Source: a virus
Lineage: Duplodnaviria > Heunggongvirae > Uroviricota > Caudoviricetes
Reading direction: 5' to 3' (one strand)
Virus record (IMG/VR): IMGVR_UViG_3300049596_000585
Coordinates: 1 to 7,208 of that record
DNA length: 7,208 bases
Made by a program: the position numbers and the translations under genes. Of the stretch, positions 1 through 7,208 are shown piece after piece (within the stretch, counting starts at the first letter, position 1; each line of letters opens with the position of its first letter). The notes beneath the pieces were generated by a model. That model searched no databases and was not told the origin of the DNA. It saw only the letters and a list, made by a program, of their open reading frames with translations.

Positions 1-782
1 CAGCCGGTGTCAGTGTCCAGTGAGTAGTTATTAAAGCGGATGACCTCCTGACCGAGCCAGCCGTTTATCTCACGGATCCTGTCCTGTAACGGGATAAGCT
101 CATTGCGGACAAAGACCTTTGCCACTTTCTCAATATCACCCAGCGACCCGACGTTCTCCGGCTTGCCGCCCATCAACTGAAAGGGGATGCGGTGCGCGTC
201 CAGCAGGTCTGCGGCACTGGCTTTTTTGATATTAAAAAAATCGTCCTTCGTCGCCACTTCACTGAGCGGGATAATTTTAATGCCGTCGGCTTTTCCCTGT
301 GGGGCATAGAGAAACAGGTTTTTAAAGTTGTTGCGGCCTTTCGACTTCACCATGTTTTCGCGAAGCATTTCGATATCGTTGCGATCCTGCACGGCATCAG
401 TGACGTACATGATGTATCCGGCATGTGCGCCGTTTTCGTAATACTTGCGGCGGAACAGCGTGGCCGACTCATTCAGCCAGGCAGAGTTAAGGGCGCTGAG
501 ATATTCCGGCAGGCCGTACAGCTCCTGATTAATATCGGGCTCCAGCAGGTGAAACACGGAACCGGGCGCGAAGGCTGTCGGTTCGTTGAAGGACGGCACC
601 CACCAGTAAACATCCTCCTCCACGCCACGGCGGGTATATTTTGCCGGTGAGGTTTCCAGTCTGATGACCTTACCGGTGGTGCTGTAACGCTTTTCCAGAA
701 ACGCATTACCGAACACCAGAAAATCCAGCACAAAGCGGCTGAAATCCTGCTGGGAAAGTCGCCGAAAATCGCCAGTGTGCAT
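1..782 (-). CDS. Partial CDS whose 3' end lies beyond the left window edge; phage head/packaging-module protein, tentatively portal (P2 gpQ / PBSX-family-like). The 5' end is uncertain and possibly truncated.
   Basis: Manual translation of the minus strand gives a stop-free frame from at least 782 to position 1 (...LSQQDFSRFVLDFLVFGNAFLEKRYSTTGKVIRLETSPAKYTRRGVEEDVYWWVPSFNEPTAFAPGSVFHLLEPDINQELYGLPEYLSALNSAWLNESATLFRRKYYENGAHAGYIMYVTDAVQDRNDIEMLRENMVKSKGRNNFKNLFLYAPQGKADGIKIIPLSEVATKDDFFNIKKASAADLLDAHRIPFQLMGGKPENVGSLGDIEKVAKVFVRNELIPLQDRIREINGWLGQEVIRFNNYSLDTDTG...). Codon usage is E. coli-like between 1 and about 700. The overlapping + ORF 192..650 in the track translates to low-complexity C/H/R/G-rich sequence typical of an antisense shadow. 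The gene is absent from the ORF track only because it has no stop in the window. There is no Walker A motif, which argues against a terminase ATPase domain. The portal assignment rests on recollection of P2-family portal sequence character, not on a search. The frame stays open upstream to TTG 974, but 783-974 is rich in rare codons (AGG, CGG, CGA, ATA, CTA) and none of the candidate starts (ATG 782, ATG 950, TTG 974) has a Shine-Dalgarno. Confidence 0.45.
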   Translation of the reverse strand, partial: MHTGDFRRLSQQDFSRFVLDFLVFGNAFLEKRYSTTGKVIRLETSPAKYTRRGVEEDVYWWVPSFNEPTAFAPGSVFHLLEPDINQELYGLPEYLSALNSAWLNESATLFRRKYYENGAHAGYIMYVTDAVQDRNDIEMLRENMVKSKGRNNFKNLFLYAPQGKADGIKIIPLSEVATKDDFFNIKKASAADLLDAHRIPFQLMGGKPENVGSLGDIEKVAKVFVRNELIPLQDRIREINGWLGQEVIRFNNYSLDTDTG

Positions 783-914
783 CAGTTCGGTCTGTCGGAA
801 GAAACCCGGAAAGACGGTAAGAAAATTGATTATCCGGCGCGTCCTCTGCTCGGCTTTACCGGTGAGGATGTGCAGATGATTGAAGAGATTATCCTGGCTC
901 ACCTTGAGCGTTAG
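651..914 (+). other. Open + frame ending at TAG 912-914; possible 3' remnant of a rightward gene (candidate tail-completion gpS-like C-terminus) convergent with the AT-rich gene
   Basis: The + frame is stop-free from 651 to 914 (...GKSPKIASVHQFGLSEETRKDGKKIDYPARPLLGFTGEDVQMIEEIILAHLER*). Codon usage between about 777 and 914 is clearly better on + than on - (minus has AGG, CGG, CGA, ATA, CTA). The only in-frame starts are GTG 777 (45 aa), GTG 870 and ATG 876 (12 aa); ATG 876 has a strong SD, GAGGA at 864-868 with a 7-nt spacer. No full-length gene is possible, so this is either a 3' gene remnant or a small ORF. Confidence 0.2.
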
Positions 915-943
915 TTTTATCCAGGCAGAGGCTGATGCGCAAT

Positions 944-980
944 TAAACATTGAGCGGCCATGCTGGTCGCTCAATGTTTA
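944..980. terminator. Perfect 13-bp inverted repeat (944-956 TAAACATTGAGCG / 968-980 CGCTCAATGTTTA) with an 11-nt loop; candidate bidirectional stem-loop between convergent transcription units
   Basis: Read directly from the sequence. It lies 6 nt downstream of the stop of the minus-strand gene 986..1771 and 30 nt downstream of the + frame stop at 914. U-tracts are weak or displaced on both strands (AAUU on minus; UUUUUAUUU about 15 nt downstream on plus), so it is not a canonical intrinsic terminator. Confidence 0.4.
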
Positions 981-985
981 GAGGC

Positions 986-1771
986 TTATGAGTGATTTTT
1001 ATTTGATGCTTTGTATTCTACAACCTTCTTATTGGCGTAAAGGAATTTTGTATATGACAGGAATATAACCAGACCTGAAATGAAATAGATGAGGGATATT
1101 ATTAATAATGCTTTTTTTTGGCTGTTATTATCTTTAATTTCCTGACTTAACCATTCCGAGTCCTCCTCGTTTAGCTGTAAGAGCTTATTGCAGGCGATCT
1201 CAGGAAGTGTGTCTTTTATAAATATGTTTCGTAGCCTCTTGCAATCGGCAAGGCTATAAGTTGTATTGAATTCAACTGTTTTATTGTTGAAGGATAAAAG
1301 AACTTTGTCACTATAAACATAGTACATCATATTTTTATATGGTATGCCTATGGCATCTCTTACTATAGCGGATTGTTTGTTGTGTATATAACATGCGAAG
1401 AGAATATAAATAATGCTGGACAGAATTACAATTATTGTTTTAATTATGTGTGGTGGTTTTGTTATGTCACCCCAGAAGCGAGTAAGAAAAAAATACGATG
1501 TTTTTAGTTTTCCATCAATCAGCCCCTGCTGTATCATTCTCACATCTTCGATGCCTGATACATTGATTCCGTTAATTATTTTAAATAGTTGAATGTCGCG
1601 CCATTTTTTGTCGAGCATTTTTAACTTTCTGTCTGAATACTCAAAATTGAAATGATGTGCAATAAACCTCATAAGATTACTTTTACCAAAGGTAATAAAT
1701 GTTAATGCTATTAATAAAAATAGATACAAAGAGATAAACCACCACGCATTAGTCACATTATCACTGAACAT
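986..1771 (-). CDS. AT-rich 261-aa predicted inner-membrane protein with three TM segments, function unknown; cargo gene in the slot where P2 carries orf30, between the head/tail-completion side and gene V
   Basis: ORF track 986..1771 (-). ATG at 1771-1769 is preceded by SD AGGAG (complement of 1778-1782) with a 6-nt spacer. GC content is roughly 25-35% against about 50-55% in the flanks. Hydrophobic segments: aa 9-28 (AWWFISLYLFLLIALTFITF; DNA 1688-1747), aa 109-129 (IIKTIIVILSSIIYILFACYI; about 1385-1447), aa 221-240 (ALLIISLIYFISGLVIFLSY; 1052-1111). Loop 1 and the C-tail are Lys/Arg-rich, so the positive-inside rule suggests N-out/C-in. The second loop (about 90 aa) carries two Cys. No recognisable catalytic motif. 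Confidence 0.8.
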   Translation of the reverse strand: MFSDNVTNAWWFISLYLFLLIALTFITFGKSNLMRFIAHHFNFEYSDRKLKMLDKKWRDIQLFKIINGINVSGIEDVRMIQQGLIDGKLKTSYFFLTRFWGDITKPPHIIKTIIVILSSIIYILFACYIHNKQSAIVRDAIGIPYKNMMYYVYSDKVLLSFNNKTVEFNTTYSLADCKRLRNIFIKDTLPEIACNKLLQLNEEDSEWLSQEIKDNNSQKKALLIISLIYFISGLVIFLSYTKFLYANKKVVEYKASNKNHS

Positions 1772-1854
1772 TACGCTCTCCTCGAATGTTGTATGGTCGT
1801 TCTACAAATGAATCCAGATAGCATAACTTTTATATATTGTGCAATCTCACACGC
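1772..1854. promoter_or_regulatory. Divergent intergenic control region between the AT-rich gene and the tail operon; candidate late-promoter activator dyad and -10 element
   Basis: Imperfect dyad TTGT-N11-ACAA at 1789-1807. The reported Ogr/Delta-type site of P2/P4 late promoters is TGT-N12-ACA centred near -55, so the spacing here is one short. TATATA at 1831-1836 lies about 36 bp downstream of the dyad centre. There is no SD in front of the V ATG at 1855. On the opposite strand, a TATATA-containing stretch could serve the divergent membrane-protein gene. Confidence 0.3.
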
Positions 1855-2490
1855 ATGAACACTCTCGCAAATATTCAGGAACTCGCGCGCGCACTGCGCA
1901 ACATGATTCGTACCGGCCTTGTCGTCGAAACCAACCTTAAAGCCGGTCGCTGCCGTGTGCAGACCGGTGGCATGTGCACTGACTGGCTTCAGTGGCTGAC
2001 CCATCGTGCCGGACGTTCGCGCACATGGTGGGCACCTTCCGTGGGGGAACAGGTGCTGATTCTGGCTGTGGGCGGTGAACTCGACACGGCGTTCGTTCTG
2101 CCGGGGATTTATTCCGGCGATAACCCCGCGCCGTCTGCGTCGGCGGATGCCCTGCATATCCGTTTCCCTGACGGGGCGGTGATTGAGTATGAACCCGAAA
2201 CCAGTGCACTCACGGTAAGCGGAATTAAAACGGCCAGCGTGACGGCTTCTGATTCTGTTACTGCCACGGTGCCGGTGGTCATGGTGAAAGCATCAACCCG
2301 CGTCACCCTGGACACACCGGAGGTGGTTTGCACCAACAGGCTGATTACCGGCACGCTGGAAGTGCAGAAGGGCGGGACGATGCGCGGCAACATTGAACAC
2401 ACCGGCGGTGAACTCTCATCAAACGGTAAGGTACTGCATACCCATAAACACCCCGGCGACAGCGGCGGCACAACCGGGAGCCCTCTATGA
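1855..2490 (+). CDS. V: Baseplate spike/assembly protein gpV (P2 V-like, Phage_base_V family)
   Basis: The ORF track frame 1837..2490 starts at TTG, but the internal ATG at 1855 gives a 211-aa product (MNTLANIQELARALRNMIRTG...HKHPGDSGGTTGSPL) matching the length and sequence character of P2 gpV. It is first in the V-W-J-I-H order, and its stop overlaps the W start (ATGA at 2487-2490). Confidence 0.9.
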   Translation: MNTLANIQELARALRNMIRTGLVVETNLKAGRCRVQTGGMCTDWLQWLTHRAGRSRTWWAPSVGEQVLILAVGGELDTAFVLPGIYSGDNPAPSASADALHIRFPDGAVIEYEPETSALTVSGIKTASVTASDSVTATVPVVMVKASTRVTLDTPEVVCTNRLITGTLEVQKGGTMRGNIEHTGGELSSNGKVLHTHKHPGDSGGTTGSPL

Positions 2491-2834
2491 CAGCGCGTTA
2501 TCTCGGAATGAATTGCAGTGATGGCCTGACTGTCACTGACCTTGAGCATATCAGCCAGAGTATCGGCGATATCCTGCGCACACCGGTCGGCTCGCGGGTG
2601 ATGCGTCGTGATTACGGCTCGTTGCTGGCGTCAATGATTGACCAGCCGCAGACCCCGGCGCTTGAGTTGCAGATTAAGGTCGCCTGTTACATGGCGGTGC
2701 TGAAATGGGAACCCCGCGTCACCCTGTCATCCGTCACCACTGAGCGCAGTTTTGACGGGCGAATGACGGTCACCTTAACCGGCCAGCACAACGACACCGG
2801 CCAGCCACTTTCGTTAACCATCCCTGTGAGTTGA
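2487..2834 (+). CDS. W: Baseplate wedge protein gpW (GPW/gp25-like)
   Basis: ORF track 2487..2834, 115 aa, the same length as P2 gpW. SD GGGAG at 2476-2480 with a 6-nt spacer. Start overlaps the V stop, consistent with translational coupling. Confidence 0.9.
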   Translation: MTARYLGMNCSDGLTVTDLEHISQSIGDILRTPVGSRVMRRDYGSLLASMIDQPQTPALELQIKVACYMAVLKWEPRVTLSSVTTERSFDGRMTVTLTGQHNDTGQPLSLTIPVS

Positions 2835-2838
2835 AACC

Positions 2839-3747
2839 ATGCCGATTATCGACCTGAACCAGCTACCCGCACCGGATGTGGTCGAGGAGCTGGACTTTGA
2901 AACCATTCTCGCCGAACGCAAGGCGACACTGATTTCCCTTTACCCGGAAGCCCAGCAGGAGGCGGTCGCCCGTACCCTGACGCTGGAATCCGAGCCTCTC
3001 GTCAAATTGCTGGAGGAAAATGCTTATCGTGAGCTTATCTGGCGTCAGCGTGTGAATGAGGCCGCACGGGCGGTGATGCTGGCCTGTGCCGCGGGTAATG
3101 ACCTTGATGTGATTGGTGCCAATTACAACACCACGCGTCTGACTATCACCCCGGCAGATAATTCGACTATCCCGCCGACACCGGCAGTGATGGAATCTGA
3201 TACCGATTATCGTCTGCGTATTCAGCAGGCGTTTGAAGGTTTAAGCGTCGCCGGGTCGGTGGGTGCCTATCAGTATCATGGTCGCAGTGCTGACGGGCGT
3301 GTCGCGGATATCTCTGTCACCAGTCCGTCTCCGGCCTGCGTCACCATCTCTGTGCTGTCACGTGAGAATAACGGTGTCGCATCCGAAGACCTGCTGGCGG
3401 TGGTGCGTAACGCCCTGAATGGCGAGGACGTCAGACCGGTGGCCGACCGCGTGACCGTGCAGTCTGCCGCCATTGTTGAATACCAGATAAACGCCACGCT
3501 TTACCTTTACCCTGGTCCCGAAAGCGAACCCATCCGCGCTGCTGCCGTGAAAAAACTGGAAGCGTACATCACGGCACAGCACCGGCTGGGGCGCGACATC
3601 CGTCTGTCTGCCATTTATGCCGCTTTGCATGTGGAAGGCGTGCAGCGTGTCGAACTGGCTGCACCGCTGGCCGATATCGTGCTTAACAGCACGCAGGCGT
3701 CTTTCTGTACTGAATACCGCGTCGTGACCGGAGGCTCGGATGAGTGA
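2839..3747 (+). CDS. J: Baseplate assembly protein gpJ (Baseplate_J family)
   Basis: ORF track 2839..3747, 302 aa, the same length as P2 gpJ. Sits at the canonical position after W, 4 nt after the W stop. Confidence 0.9.
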   Translation: MPIIDLNQLPAPDVVEELDFETILAERKATLISLYPEAQQEAVARTLTLESEPLVKLLEENAYRELIWRQRVNEAARAVMLACAAGNDLDVIGANYNTTRLTITPADNSTIPPTPAVMESDTDYRLRIQQAFEGLSVAGSVGAYQYHGRSADGRVADISVTSPSPACVTISVLSRENNGVASEDLLAVVRNALNGEDVRPVADRVTVQSAAIVEYQINATLYLYPGPESEPIRAAAVKKLEAYITAQHRLGRDIRLSAIYAALHVEGVQRVELAAPLADIVLNSTQASFCTEYRVVTGGSDE

Positions 3748-4270
3748 TTCGCGACTGCTGCCGACCGGCTCATCACCGCTTGAGGTCGCCGCCGCAAAAG
3801 CCTGTGCGGAAATTGAAAAAACACCGGTCAGTATTCGTGAGCTGTGGAACCCGGACACCTGCCCGGCAAATCTGCTGCCGTGGCTGGCGTGGGCGTTTTC
3901 GGTCGACAGATGGGATGAAAAGTGGCCGGAAGCGACAAAACGCGCCGTTATCCGCGATGCGTATTTCATCCACTGTCATAAAGGCACTATAGGTGCAATC
4001 CGGCGTGTGGTGGAGCCGCTAGGCTATCTAATTAACGTAAAGGAATGGTGGGAGACAAACGACCCGCCCGGAACCTTCCGCCTTGATATCGGCGTACTGG
4101 AAAGCGGCATCACGGAGGAGATGTATCTGGAAATGGAACGGCTGATTGCCGATGCCAAACCCGCAAGTCGCCACCTTATCGGTCTGAACATTATCCAGGA
4201 CATTCCCGGCTATCTGTATACAGGCGGTGTGGTCTGTGATGGTGATGTTATTACTGTTTATCCCGGATAA
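3740..4270 (+). CDS. I: Baseplate/tail-fibre attachment protein gpI (P2 I-like)
   Basis: ORF track 3740..4270, 176 aa, the same length as P2 gpI. SD GGAGG at 3730-3734 with a 5-nt spacer. The ATG overlaps the J stop by 8 nt (ATGAGTGA). Confidence 0.9.
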   Translation: MSDSRLLPTGSSPLEVAAAKACAEIEKTPVSIRELWNPDTCPANLLPWLAWAFSVDRWDEKWPEATKRAVIRDAYFIHCHKGTIGAIRRVVEPLGYLINVKEWWETNDPPGTFRLDIGVLESGITEEMYLEMERLIADAKPASRHLIGLNIIQDIPGYLYTGGVVCDGDVITVYPG

Positions 4271-4280
4271 GTGAGAAACA

Positions 4281-7049
4281 ATGAGCACGAAATTTAAAAC
4301 CGTTATCACTACTGCCGGAGCCGCAAAGCTGGCAGCCGCCACTGTCCCCGGCGGGAAAAAAGTAACCCTGTCTGCAATGGCCGTGGGTGACGGTAATGGC
4401 AAATTGCCGGTGCCGGATGCTGGTCAGACGAAACTGGTGCATGAGGTCTGGCGTCACGCCCTGAATAAAGTCAGCGTGGATAACAAGAATAAAAACTATA
4501 TCGTGGCTGAACTGGTTGTACCGCCAGAAGTGGGCGGCTTCTGGATGCGTGAACTTGGTCTGTATGACGATGCCGGAACACTGATTGCGGTCGCTAACAT
4601 GGTAGAAAGCTATAAGCCTGAACTGGCTGAAGGCTCCGGGCGTGCGCAGACCTGCCGCATGGTTATTATTGTCAGTAACGTGGCGTCTGTTGAGCTGAGT
4701 ATTGATGCCAGCACGGTGATGGCGACGCAGGATTACGTCGATAAAGCCATATCCAGTTTTCATCGTACTGTCATTGATGATGTGGTTCTTCAGCATAAAG
4801 TTGTCCACGATATTGACTACGCCGGGATTTTTGACGGTGCGGATAATATGAGTCAGGGGTTCTGTATCTGTGATACGCCGCAGGGAACCAGAATGTTTCT
4901 GCATCAGCCTGTATCGGGTGGCGTAAGGATTGTTGAAACGACATTTAACCCTGACGGAGAAAACGAAAACCCGACGGTCATTTCGTTTTCTCCCGTTTTC
5001 GCTGATATTGGTCACCAGAGTATCGGGGCTGTATGTGAAGACGGTCGCGTGATGCTGTATACCCCGACCGCTGACGGCAAGGGTGTGAATATCATCAACT
5101 GGAATGGGGCTGACACCAGTCTGTTGATTGTTCAGTCAAGTAATGAAGCCGTCCATCTTCATTACAACAGGGATGACCGCCGCACAGTTTATGTTTTCGA
5201 TCGCGCTTCTCTGACGTTTAAACACCGGATTTATCTGTCCACCCAGTCAATGGTGTCGCAGGCATTTCAGGGGATGGCCAGCGATGGTCATTATCTGTTT
5301 GCTTATTACGGTTATACAGGCGTATTTCTGACTCACCGCATTGTTGTATATAACCTGTCAACGGGCGAAGTTGTCAGACAGTTCAATGTGGATGGCGTTC
5401 GTGCCAGGTATGGCCGCCAGAAAATGCTGGGGAATGCAGAGCTGGGGTATCCCGTTTTGCAGGAAGCCGAAGGGCTGGCTCTTCATAACGGAAAACTGTA
5501 TCTGCTCGATATGGATTTCTGGTGTCAGACAGCAGATGTGGTTTCTTTTGAGGGGGCATACTTTGCAGCACGTGCAACAAATTTTTCTGGCCGTTCCCCG
5601 GTGAATCCATCTTACTGGACGCCTACAGCATATGGAACGGCGGCTGCAACGAAATATGATGCCACGAAGTCTTATACGTGTGGCGTGGCGACAAAACGCA
5701 GCAAAGCTGTGGTTTCCGTGGAGGCTTACGACGGCACAGGCTATCTGGTGGACTCCGGCGTGGCGTTTCCTGACAGCCATGCTAGCCTTTTTCTGAGTCC
5801 CAATGCTGTAAATATTGCCCTGTCACCCAATGAAGACTTCCAGGTGGCAGCCTATGAGCAGAATCTGCGCTCGCATCGCCCGTTATTTGAGGTCAGAAAG
5901 GAGGCTCCGGATACAGACACTTCTGCTGCTGTTTTTCGTTTGTACGGGGATGCGTTCCGAACCGGAGAATACACAGGCCGCTTCGTTCAGTGGAAACACC
6001 GACTGAACACCGTGCACGATTGTCTGGAAATACGCGCTGACGTGGATTTGTTGAGCGGTGGCGGGATTAACCTTTACTCAATGAACGATACTCAGTCGGC
6101 GGGGCGCACAAGGCTTTATTGTACCGATGGCAGTGAGACCTGGTCTGTATTATTGAGTCCGGTCTCGCCGGCATTTCATCCCGACCAGGACAAGGCAATG
6201 AATCTGGGGTCATCGCCAAATCGCTGGAATGTGGCATACCTGCAGGGCGTGAATATTAAATCGGATGACGAAACCCAGAAGCGCATGGCCATCAGCACCA
6301 CGCTGAAGGCGGGAGCTTTCCAGGTATCAACAGCCGGGAATCTGGGTATTTATGACGATTCTGCTGACGCTTATGTAATTGCAGCCCGTAGTGACGGCAC
6401 TGCATTCATGCAGATGGATACAGATATTAACGGTGCATTCCGGCCATCGGTTAACAATACCAGCGACCTGGGTGCGCCCAACAAAGCGTTCCGGAGCGTG
6501 TATCTCTGCAACTCGCCGACCGTTGTGTCGGATGCGACGTTAAAGGATACACCGCGCGATGCGACGGCAGCCGAAAACGCGGCATTTGCAGAAATAGCAC
6601 GGCTTCCGGGCGTGTGGCGCTGGTTACAGAGAATTGAGGAGGAGGGCGAGGACGCGCGTCTGCACGCCGGGCCGACAGTCCAGGCCGCGATAGCGGTGAT
6701 GGAGAAACACGGTCTGGACTGGCGGAAATACAGCGCATTTTGTCTGGATTCGTGGGAAGCGGAGGAGGCACAGTACGAAGATATACCGGAAGAGTATGAA
6801 GATATTCCGGTTCAGCCAGCGATTTATTCGGATGAAGGGGAGCTGTTGAGCGGGACAACTCGTGTGCTTACCCGACAGGCGGAAAGGGTTCTTGTTCGCC
6901 CTGCAACCGAAGCAGGAAGCCGTTATCGCTTCCGGAAAGAGGAGCTTCTCTGGTGGTGTCTACGTGCTGTTGTCAGCCAGGTGGATTTGTTAATGGAACG
7001 CTTTGTTGACTTAAATCGTCGTTTGATGAAGTTGGAGACTTCAGAATAA
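4281..7049 (+). CDS. H: Tail fibre protein gpH-like, mosaic: P2-type N-terminal anchor (about aa 1-160), divergent distal receptor-binding region (about aa 161-749), C-terminal S74-type intramolecular chaperone domain (aa 750-922)
   Basis: ORF track 4281..7049, 922 aa, against about 669 aa for P2 gpH. The N-terminus (MSTKFKTVITTAGAAKLAAA...WRHALNKVSVDNKNKNYIVAELVVPPEVGGFWMRELGLYDDAGTLIAVANMVESYKPELAEGSGR...TQDYVDKAI) has the conserved P2 H anchor character. The remainder does not resemble what I recall of P2 H. The C-terminus carries an SDATLK motif followed by ...RLHAGPTVQAA... and a terminal heptad-like segment (LLWWCLRAVVSQVDLLMERFVDLNRRLMKLE), the pattern of Peptidase_S74 intramolecular chaperone domains. 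Confidence 0.9.
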   Translation: MSTKFKTVITTAGAAKLAAATVPGGKKVTLSAMAVGDGNGKLPVPDAGQTKLVHEVWRHALNKVSVDNKNKNYIVAELVVPPEVGGFWMRELGLYDDAGTLIAVANMVESYKPELAEGSGRAQTCRMVIIVSNVASVELSIDASTVMATQDYVDKAISSFHRTVIDDVVLQHKVVHDIDYAGIFDGADNMSQGFCICDTPQGTRMFLHQPVSGGVRIVETTFNPDGENENPTVISFSPVFADIGHQSIGAVCEDGRVMLYTPTADGKGVNIINWNGADTSLLIVQSSNEAVHLHYNRDDRRTVYVFDRASLTFKHRIYLSTQSMVSQAFQGMASDGHYLFAYYGYTGVFLTHRIVVYNLSTGEVVRQFNVDGVRARYGRQKMLGNAELGYPVLQEAEGLALHNGKLYLLDMDFWCQTADVVSFEGAYFAARATNFSGRSPVNPSYWTPTAYGTAAATKYDATKSYTCGVATKRSKAVVSVEAYDGTGYLVDSGVAFPDSHASLFLSPNAVNIALSPNEDFQVAAYEQNLRSHRPLFEVRKEAPDTDTSAAVFRLYGDAFRTGEYTGRFVQWKHRLNTVHDCLEIRADVDLLSGGGINLYSMNDTQSAGRTRLYCTDGSETWSVLLSPVSPAFHPDQDKAMNLGSSPNRWNVAYLQGVNIKSDDETQKRMAISTTLKAGAFQVSTAGNLGIYDDSADAYVIAARSDGTAFMQMDTDINGAFRPSVNNTSDLGAPNKAFRSVYLCNSPTVVSDATLKDTPRDATAAENAAFAEIARLPGVWRWLQRIEEEGEDARLHAGPTVQAAIAVMEKHGLDWRKYSAFCLDSWEAEEAQYEDIPEEYEDIPVQPAIYSDEGELLSGTTRVLTRQAERVLVRPATEAGSRYRFRKEELLWWCLRAVVSQVDLLMERFVDLNRRLMKLETSE
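6528..7046 (+). other. C-terminal intramolecular chaperone / autoproteolysis domain of the tail fibre (Peptidase_S74-like); predicted cleavage just before Ser750 with a Ser750/Lys755 dyad
   Basis: TCG (Ser750) at 6528-6530 begins SDATLK, with Ser and Lys spaced 5 residues apart as in the endosialidase-type S-D-x-x-x-K dyad. Downstream are an R-x-H-x-G...Q block (ARLHAGPTVQAA) and a C-terminal amphipathic helix. Domain length is about 173 aa. Assignment is by motif recognition only. Confidence 0.6.
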
Positions 7050-7208
7050 ACAAGCCTTAATGAGTATCTGCTTAAAATAGTGTTATCTACAGATCAAACT
7101 TTAGTTGATACGAGTCACTGTCCTCCCCGTAACAACTGGAGTTAAAAGATGTGATGGCATATAAATATAACATCAAATAATTATTTTTTTTGCCCCTCAC
7201 CCTTAATT

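Follow-up and report, generated by a model that had tools for sequence, protein, structure and literature searches.

The stretch of DNA analysed here, positions 1 to 7,208 of the IMG/VR virus record IMGVR_UViG_3300049596_000585 (the window; 7,208 nucleotides (nt)), carries, at the position of the tail gene H of phage P2, a gene for a product of 922 amino acids (aa). We propose that this gene encodes the spike of a defective prophage of Escherichia coli B and that it is a four-part chimera, composed of a P2-type anchor, a propeller of the type found in phage phi11, a stalk and a Peptidase_S74 (S74) chaperone, of which the window holds a deleted copy. We assign this reading a probability of about 0.8.

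In the proposed working of the spike, aa 1-160 would plug the trimer into the P2 baseplate, as their homology suggests, and the propeller (aa ~169-434), whose fold is predicted, would bind a surface saccharide in a pocket whose lining is made up of conserved Gln, His and Thr. Following a beta-rich stalk, likely formed by aa ~435-749, aa 750-922 would drive trimer folding and then remove themselves by Ser750/Lys755 autoproteolysis, leaving a mature subunit of 749 aa. This last step is proposed by analogy with K1F endosialidase and T5 pb1, in which the chaperone domain serves as a template for trimer assembly before being cleaved off. Since folding would be self-contained, the separate P2 chaperone gpG may be dispensable, which would account for its absence at this locus.

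A preliminary description of the window had presented the gene as a mosaic tail fibre with a P2 gpH anchor and a divergent, self-chaperoning distal module. The chimeric nature of the gene is borne out below; the term fibre is not, as the predicted propeller domain makes the product spike-like. That description overlooked the propeller, a 30-aa deletion within it and the defective state of the prophage.

The anchor, the junction and the distal cassette

The anchor of about 160 aa, as first described, was recovered both as a domain and by direct comparison. PF12571 (Phage_tail_fib N-terminal) matches aa 1-151 (E 5e-57, 192.5 bits against a cut-off of 23), and in BLASTP aa 1-163 are 79% identical to P2 H (NC_001895, 669 aa); the E-values exclude a chance match. 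In DNA, the similarity to H of P2, L-413C and many other peduoviruses amounts to 95-98% identity and is limited to nt 1-462 of the gene. Beyond aa 163, no significant BLASTP match to P2 H was obtained, the remaining segments all having E > 0.1. The distal ~760 aa are hence a different module, as had been claimed; colinearity with P2 H is absent, and the module matches no fibre of known receptor. A receptor different from that of P2 would be expected from the unrelated fold predicted for this region. The product exceeds P2 H by 253 aa, in agreement with the earlier estimate of about 250, and intact copies exceed it by 283 aa.

The foreign part begins abruptly. In Pollock gp75, the tail spike of an N4-like podophage, and in other carriers, protein similarity starts at aa 161 with the motif IDDVVLQHKVVHDIDY (window aa 161-166), and Pollock gp75 is 75% identical in aa sequence over spike aa 161-919. 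Relatives of aa 159-715 amount to 52 proteins at 90% clustering, almost all of them E. coli P2-type fusions, and a HMMER scan of 1.84 billion representatives returned 131 clusters with ~30% identity over ~500 aa, many of the distant relatives scanned for domains ending in PF13884. The relatives of the cassette have a common module downstream and unrelated N-termini upstream of one sharp junction, at least five adaptor types being represented: P2-type (PF12571) in the window protein and P0053; gp66/TSP1-type (PF18668) in P0023 and P0029, with whose N-terminus that of Pollock gp75 aligns; T7-fibre type (PF03906) in P0054; and two further, differing types in P0004 and P0036. Together with the identity to Pollock gp75, this single junction upholds the earlier view that modules were exchanged at the H locus.

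The history of the exchange was further traced with the intact counterpart of the gene in E. coli B strain REL606 (NC_012967), ECB_RS10545 (WP_000104717.1; 2859 nt, 952 aa), which is labelled 'phage tail protein' only. In a sliding comparison with Pollock gp75, REL606 aa 522-722 (~600 nt) are 96-99% identical at the nt level, against 55-75% in the propeller and chaperone regions. In Pollock, the patch (about 6440-7040 of the Pollock locus, L002) has an E. coli-like G+C content of about 0.52 (0.47-0.54), against 0.29-0.40 in the propeller and chaperone; the Pollock genome as a whole has 36% G+C and its spike gene 39%. A ~600-nt patch that is 96-99% identical between two phage types is direct evidence for module exchange and indicates an old common cassette on which a very recent patch transfer was superimposed, probably from a copy of E. 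coli-like G+C to the virulent Pollock. As judged from these comparisons, the distal three parts of the spike are a mobile cassette common to virulent N4-like and other podophages.

The self-chaperoning C-terminal domain announced by the preliminary description was found by sequence and by fold. PF13884 matches aa 750-812 (38.1 bits against a cut-off of 22), and sequence matches to solved intramolecular chaperones include T5 pb1 (4uw8, E 8e-15) and K1F endosialidase (3gw6). Searched against the PDB, the family profile retrieved 7y5s, 4uw8, 9vvr, 3gud, 6eu4 and 3gw6 (E 1e-29 to 7e-18), and Foldseek also matched the chaperone domain by fold (4uw8, 3gw6). In T5 pb1 (4uw8), the segment ahead of the chaperone aligns with the last ~70 aa of the stalk (from query aa 680). 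The Ser-Lys dyad is intact, with the codon of Ser750 at 6528-6530 and that of Lys755 at 6543-6545, and the motif VSDATLK aligns with SDARLK (7y5s), SDARKK (6eu4) and ADARLK (4uw8), the Ala in the last of these being presumably a cleavage-blocking Ser-to-Ala mutation. By analogy with these proteins, self-cleavage is predicted immediately before Ser750.

The predicted propeller and its ligand

The fold of the central domain was modelled with AlphaFold2 on the undeleted homologue P0004 (951 aa), using a 46-sequence alignment which included distant representatives; a model built with a 10-sequence alignment had a mean predicted local distance difference test score (pLDDT) of 40.7 and was discarded. 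The P0004 model has a mean pLDDT of 75.8, with values of about 90 at residues 165-535 and of 85-95 in the chaperone, and its central domain consists of four-stranded blade repeats. Against the PDB, the top Foldseek matches are phi11 Gp45 (5efv, E 2e-13) and the receptor-binding proteins (RBPs) of NF5, 80alpha and P68 (gp17), followed by the chaperone structures 4uw8 and 3gw6. Against BFVD, the fibre of E. coli phage R4596 (E 9e-67) and the GA-1 neck appendage (E 2e-42) rank first, followed by further S74-bearing tail proteins. A search of the PDB with the sequence profile gave a weak match to P68 gp17 (E 0.005). Based on the model, we assign the central domain to the five-bladed propellers of the phi11 type.

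Ten residues are conserved across the family, namely Q192, R216, H245, K267, T279, Q330, Y377, E395, E397 and W414; T279, Q330, E395 and E397 are the same in all 46 aligned members, and Q192 and H245 each occur in 98% of them. The segments VMQSF, GGHGTH and PMQGITYD of phi11 resemble MSQGF, IGHQS and AFQGMASD here, a correspondence which comes only partly from a scored alignment, and the motif QEAEGL is found in both proteins. The three phi11 Gp45 segments contain, in this order, Gln165, Thr211 and Gln330, which are reported to line a cavity of the size of N-acetylglucosamine (GlcNAc) (PMC4901313). The propeller is thus predicted to be, and probably is, a saccharide-binding site.

Several points weigh against the proposed reading. 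The structural model is a monomer of the homologue P0004, neither the window protein nor a trimer, and binding, trimerisation and cleavage are all predicted throughout the spike family. An hhalign comparison with phi11 Gp45 is statistically weak (E 0.018, probability 2.6%), so that the homology rests mainly on fold and motifs. PF21311, the Pfam family 'phage 5-bladed beta-propeller receptor binding platform', gives no match to the window protein and is weak in three of ten distant relatives, one above the cut-off (24.5 against 23.7 bits) and two below it. The reading frame stays open across the deletion described below, whose effect on folding is predicted. Lastly, the O-antigen clusters of the carriers differ: B has an O7-family cluster, and two non-B carriers, which are probably one clone, an O86-family cluster.

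These clusters were considered as a guide to the receptor. The spike module is carried by 87 of 5,426 complete E. coli genomes and the O7 wzy gene by 97, and among the matches listed the two sets overlap in the B lineage only. Inferring the receptor from lysogen serotype was therefore rejected: the carriers, which differ in O-antigen cluster, fit no single O-serogroup. A literature search yielded neither a receptor nor biochemistry for Pollock gp75 (Pollock paper: PMC4319500), and no paper on the E. coli B spike gene, its propeller fold or its receptor. As a separate observation, REL606, B, ATCC 11303 and AS19 are among the spike-module genomes listed, and BL21 and its derivatives, in which O7 wzy is present, are not among the 60 listed of the 87; it seems that the BL21 branch lacks the prophage region.

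Two specific enzyme folds were rejected for the central module. For an endosialidase (glycoside hydrolase family 58, GH58), matches to endosialidases in the PDB and Pfam are limited to the chaperone and adjacent stalk, and the propeller is predicted to be five-bladed and phi11-type. For a beta-helix depolymerase like P22 gp9, with a pectate-lyase fold, the model has blade repeats and no such structure is among the top fold matches of the central domain; PF12708 was found in two distant relatives only, and there in the N-terminal part (aa 26-109), which has no counterpart in the module.

More generally, the central module could be an active depolymerase (a glycosidase, lyase or esterase) which cleaves O-antigen or capsule, an alternative that we consider less probable than binding alone and yet the most serious of those weighed here. 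The product matches PHROG 19921, 'tail spike protein', with 2093 bits, a name also chosen by GenBank annotators, and the order of adaptor, propeller, stalk and cleavable chaperone parallels that of endosialidases. The invariant E395 and E397, together with the conserved H245 and K267, could make up an active site. However, phi11 Gp45 likewise has QEAEGL, including the two glutamates, so that the motif is not specific to an enzyme. In GH43-type enzymes a blade-1 aspartate is the general base; here, the positions that reach at least 80% conservation in the 46-sequence alignment include no blade-1 aspartate. The unrelated clusters of the carriers also speak against a single O-polysaccharide substrate. 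A glycosyltransferase of family GT2 adjoins the spike gene, like the modification genes beside O-antigen-specific spikes in converting phages (compare PMC3303846). Nonetheless, the best fold relatives, by a wide margin, are the RBPs of phi11 and NF5, and for phi11 a GlcNAc-sized cavity and no catalysis have been reported (PMC4901313).

The converse proposal is that of a non-enzymatic, lectin-like propeller having its ancestry and pocket in common with the staphylococcal GlcNAc-binding platform and binding a conserved envelope sugar (e.g., a GlcNAc-containing core, enterobacterial common antigen or poly-N-acetylglucosamine) rather than serotype-specific O-antigen. If true, it would explain the presence of the module in O7- and O86-type lysogens and behind at least five unrelated virion adaptors; in so specific a form, we regard it as a doubtful conjecture.

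The deletion and the defective prophage

The window copy of the spike gene has lost 90 nt, in frame, and the 30 residues missing with respect to REL606 are TDVTRTEIFTSDFFTGDEIITVALSVDGSL. Every other copy found is 952 aa long, the PHROG 19921 profile has 952 positions, and the extra 90 nt are present in every copy among the matches listed. Mapped on P0004, the deletion covers residues 282-311, including strands E285-289 and E300-307, with which blade 2 ends and blade 3 begins, respectively. The propeller of the window copy is therefore not intact. Since a closed propeller is unlikely to tolerate the loss of two strands, this copy is probably unable to fold or bind, which would fit its residence in a dead prophage.

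Alternatively, the gap could be an artefact of assembly, sequencing or editing, the real gene being the intact 952-aa version. A 44-nt probe for the deletion junction had zero matches in the 5,426 complete E. coli genomes, and the exact 35-nt junction pattern had none in IMG/VR. Furthermore, the window has three more single-base differences from all 11 B-lineage genomes, and the microhomology that flanks the deleted 90 nt in REL606 (AGTCTG...AGCCTG) is short. On the other hand, replication slippage would be expected to leave just such a gap, which keeps the frame exactly and has an imperfect direct repeat on its flanks. Moreover, decay is unconstrained for a gene of a defective prophage, and the sequence itself bears no mark of an artefact. 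We thus consider an artefact unlikely and retain a genuine deletion.

The features of the window are collected in Table 1. REL606 aligns across the whole window with 99.9% identity and, on the strength of this alignment, the source locus is a defective P2-like prophage of E. coli B. Up to the spike gene, the gene order agrees with the late operon V-W-J-I-H-G annotated in the P2 record NC_001895, the V, W, J and I homologues having been identified in a Pfam scan of the window (PF04717/PF18715, PF04965, PF04865 and PF09684). Between the portal and S-type remnants, the head, packaging, lysis and tail-completion genes are gone; one deletion took them out, and the prophage is defective because of their loss at window 1-914. 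Farther downstream in REL606, truncation has made pseudogenes of the tail tube gene and gene D, and the genes E, T and U that would lie between these two are missing.

Table 1. Features of the window, with coordinates in the 7,208-nt stretch and the evidence for each.
Feature	Position	Strand	Evidence or remark
Portal-gene remnant	about 1-758	-	Abuts the S-type remnant
S-type virion morphogenesis gene remnant	747-914		Fused with the portal remnant
Baseplate genes V, W, J, I, 5' of the spike gene	1855..4270	+	Pfam, REL606 annotation
Chimeric receptor-binding tail gene (predicted), gpH position	4281..7049	+	ATG start, 922 aa; PHROG 19921
P2-type N-terminal baseplate-attachment domain	4281..4760 (aa 1-160)	+	PF12571, P2 H identity
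Recombination junction	4742..4775	+	Peduovirus DNA match ends at 4742; cassette match starts at aa 161 (4761)
Predicted five-bladed beta-propeller receptor-binding domain	4785..5580 (about aa 169-434)	+	Homologous to the phi11 Gp45 'platform'
In-frame 90-nt (30-aa) deletion	5123..5124	+	Relative to REL606 and all other copies found
Predicted beta-rich distal 'stalk'	5583..6527 (about aa 435-749)	+	Strand pattern of the model, pLDDT 65-93
Sub-segment of high nt identity to Pollock gp75	5754..6356 (aa ~492-692)	+	Sliding comparison
Intramolecular chaperone / Peptidase_S74	6528..7049 (aa 750-922)	+	PF13884, PDB matches, fold

It could be envisaged that the remnant tail genes and the spike have been domesticated as a tailocin, the spike serving as its targeting device. 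The head, packaging and lysis genes are deleted, V-W-J-I and H are still intact ORFs (open reading frames), and pyocins retargeted through the same junction, between aa 1-164 of the R2 fibre and a tail spike, are functional (PMC3303846). This candidate was rejected, as the truncated tube and D genes of REL606 and its missing E, T and U leave no contractile tail that could be built; the window copy, in addition, has the propeller deletion. We therefore consider domestication highly improbable.

The chimera itself is not confined to this defective locus. In strain FDAARGOS_1276 (NZ_CP070157, about 1,256,000-1,283,000 or beyond), the same yegQ/ogrK site is occupied by a P2-like prophage that is apparently complete and has the same spike gene, and the chimeric spike is therefore probably in use by a complete P2-like phage.

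The 3' side of the spike gene differs from that of P2. No gpG ORF was found in the 159 nt 3' of the spike stop codon, and no gpG homologue follows the spike gene in REL606 or FDAARGOS_1276; no terminator-like site was found in the 3' flank within the window. In P2 itself, H is followed by G and then fun(Z), whereas at this place both E. coli loci have the GT2 glycosyltransferase, which is the next gene and lies on the opposite strand, and a 71-aa ORF. The glycosyltransferase (370 aa, PF00535) and the 71-aa ORF, also on the opposite strand, lie between the spike and sheath genes, at 15071-16376 of the REL606 locus (L001), just past the 3' end of the window, and at 18062-19383 of the FDAARGOS_1276 locus (L010). 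The two genes may constitute a cassette for surface modification (lysogenic conversion) that is paired with the spike.

Other parts of the locus also vary. Between replication gene A and the portal gene, an interval known as a hotspot of anti-phage defence in P2-like phages, REL606 has an 'ABC-three component system' and an AAA ATPase as cargo (L001 3713-7404) and FDAARGOS_1276 a DUF7380 protein (L010 275-2107). Within the window, an ORF of 261 aa at 986-1771 (- strand) is 84% identical to P2 Orf30, which is nonessential and of unknown function, and it occupies the same position between S and V. This gene is AT-rich, with 32% G+C against 58% in the neighbouring genes, is frameshifted in FDAARGOS_1276, and its product matches PHROG 2407 (unknown function). 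Neither the spike nor the Orf30-like protein had a match in PADLOC or NCBIfam. The single-base differences from all 11 B-lineage complete genomes are at window positions 7, 30 and 1263; in the portal remnant they cause the substitutions K243N and N251T, and in the Orf30-like protein K170T. The window is thus identical to no sequenced B strain; it may come from a B derivative not yet sequenced, or its sequence may have been altered.

Relation to known receptor-binding systems

RefSeq and PHROGs already list the gene, with generic names. Both the mosaicism of H genes in P2-like phages and the S74 chaperone domains are textbook knowledge, and the current understanding of these is unchanged by the present analysis. 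Relative to P2 gpH, the spike has the same position after V-W-J-I, the same PF12571 domain and presumably the same attachment to the baseplate; it differs in everything past aa 163, in having a C-terminal chaperone with predicted self-cleavage, and in the gene that follows. With the tail spike of Pollock (N4-like, Schitoviridae; CPT_Pollock75 / AIX12434.1), it has the propeller, the stalk and the chaperone in common. That protein has a gp66/TSP1-type adaptor instead, as in its close relatives with PF18668, and serves a virulent podovirus.

The relation to phi11 Gp45 (PDB 5efv) and to the RBPs of 80alpha, P68 (gp17) and NF5 (gp17) is distant, with about 11-14% identity. Unlike the spike, phi11 Gp45 is built with a coiled-coil stem and two 'tower' domains and lacks an S74 chaperone; on its Gram-positive host, it recognises the GlcNAc of wall teichoic acid (PMC4901313). 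K1F endosialidase (3gw6) and T5 pb1 (4uw8) have in common with the spike the C-terminal Peptidase_S74 with its Ser/Lys dyad and the order of adaptor, propeller or tip, stalk and cleavable chaperone. However, the spike is without similarity to the pb1 shaft or to the sialidase catalytic domain of the endosialidase, which is a six-bladed propeller.

The whole propeller-stalk-chaperone architecture is found again in the neck appendage gp12 of Bacillus phage GA-1 (X96987.2 / NC_002649.1 gene 12; BFVD Q9FZW3), which, besides its Foldseek match (TMt 0.54), has 23% identity over 68% of the module in tblastn. GA-1 is a phi29-like podophage of a Gram-positive host, and gp12 has another N-terminus and a very distant sequence. 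From this match it follows that the cassette spans phages of Gram-positive and Gram-negative hosts.

The closest parallel to the chimera as a construction is artificial. In the engineered R2-pyocin fusions AvR2-V10 and AvR2-O104, aa 1-164 of the R2 fibre were joined to heterologous tail spikes (PMC3303846). These fusions are likewise based on a P2-like fibre and have their junction at the position of the natural one (aa ~160-165); they differ in that their spikes are of the P22-like beta-helix kind, with demonstrated O-antigen specificity.

The spike is an ordinary instance of host-range module swapping among phages, in a copy that is probably dead. It represents a natural counterpart of the pyocin-retargeting design, in which a P2-type anchor of ~160 aa carries a foreign, self-folding spike. 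In its intact 952-aa form, it would provide a portable cassette of ~790 aa which is found on myovirus and podovirus chassis, would need no helper chaperone and may be useful for host-range engineering. Collectively, these comparisons relate a small spike family in E. coli phages to the propeller-type RBPs in phages of Gram-positive bacteria and indicate that a virulent N4-like phage and a gene of a temperate prophage exchanged sequence very recently.

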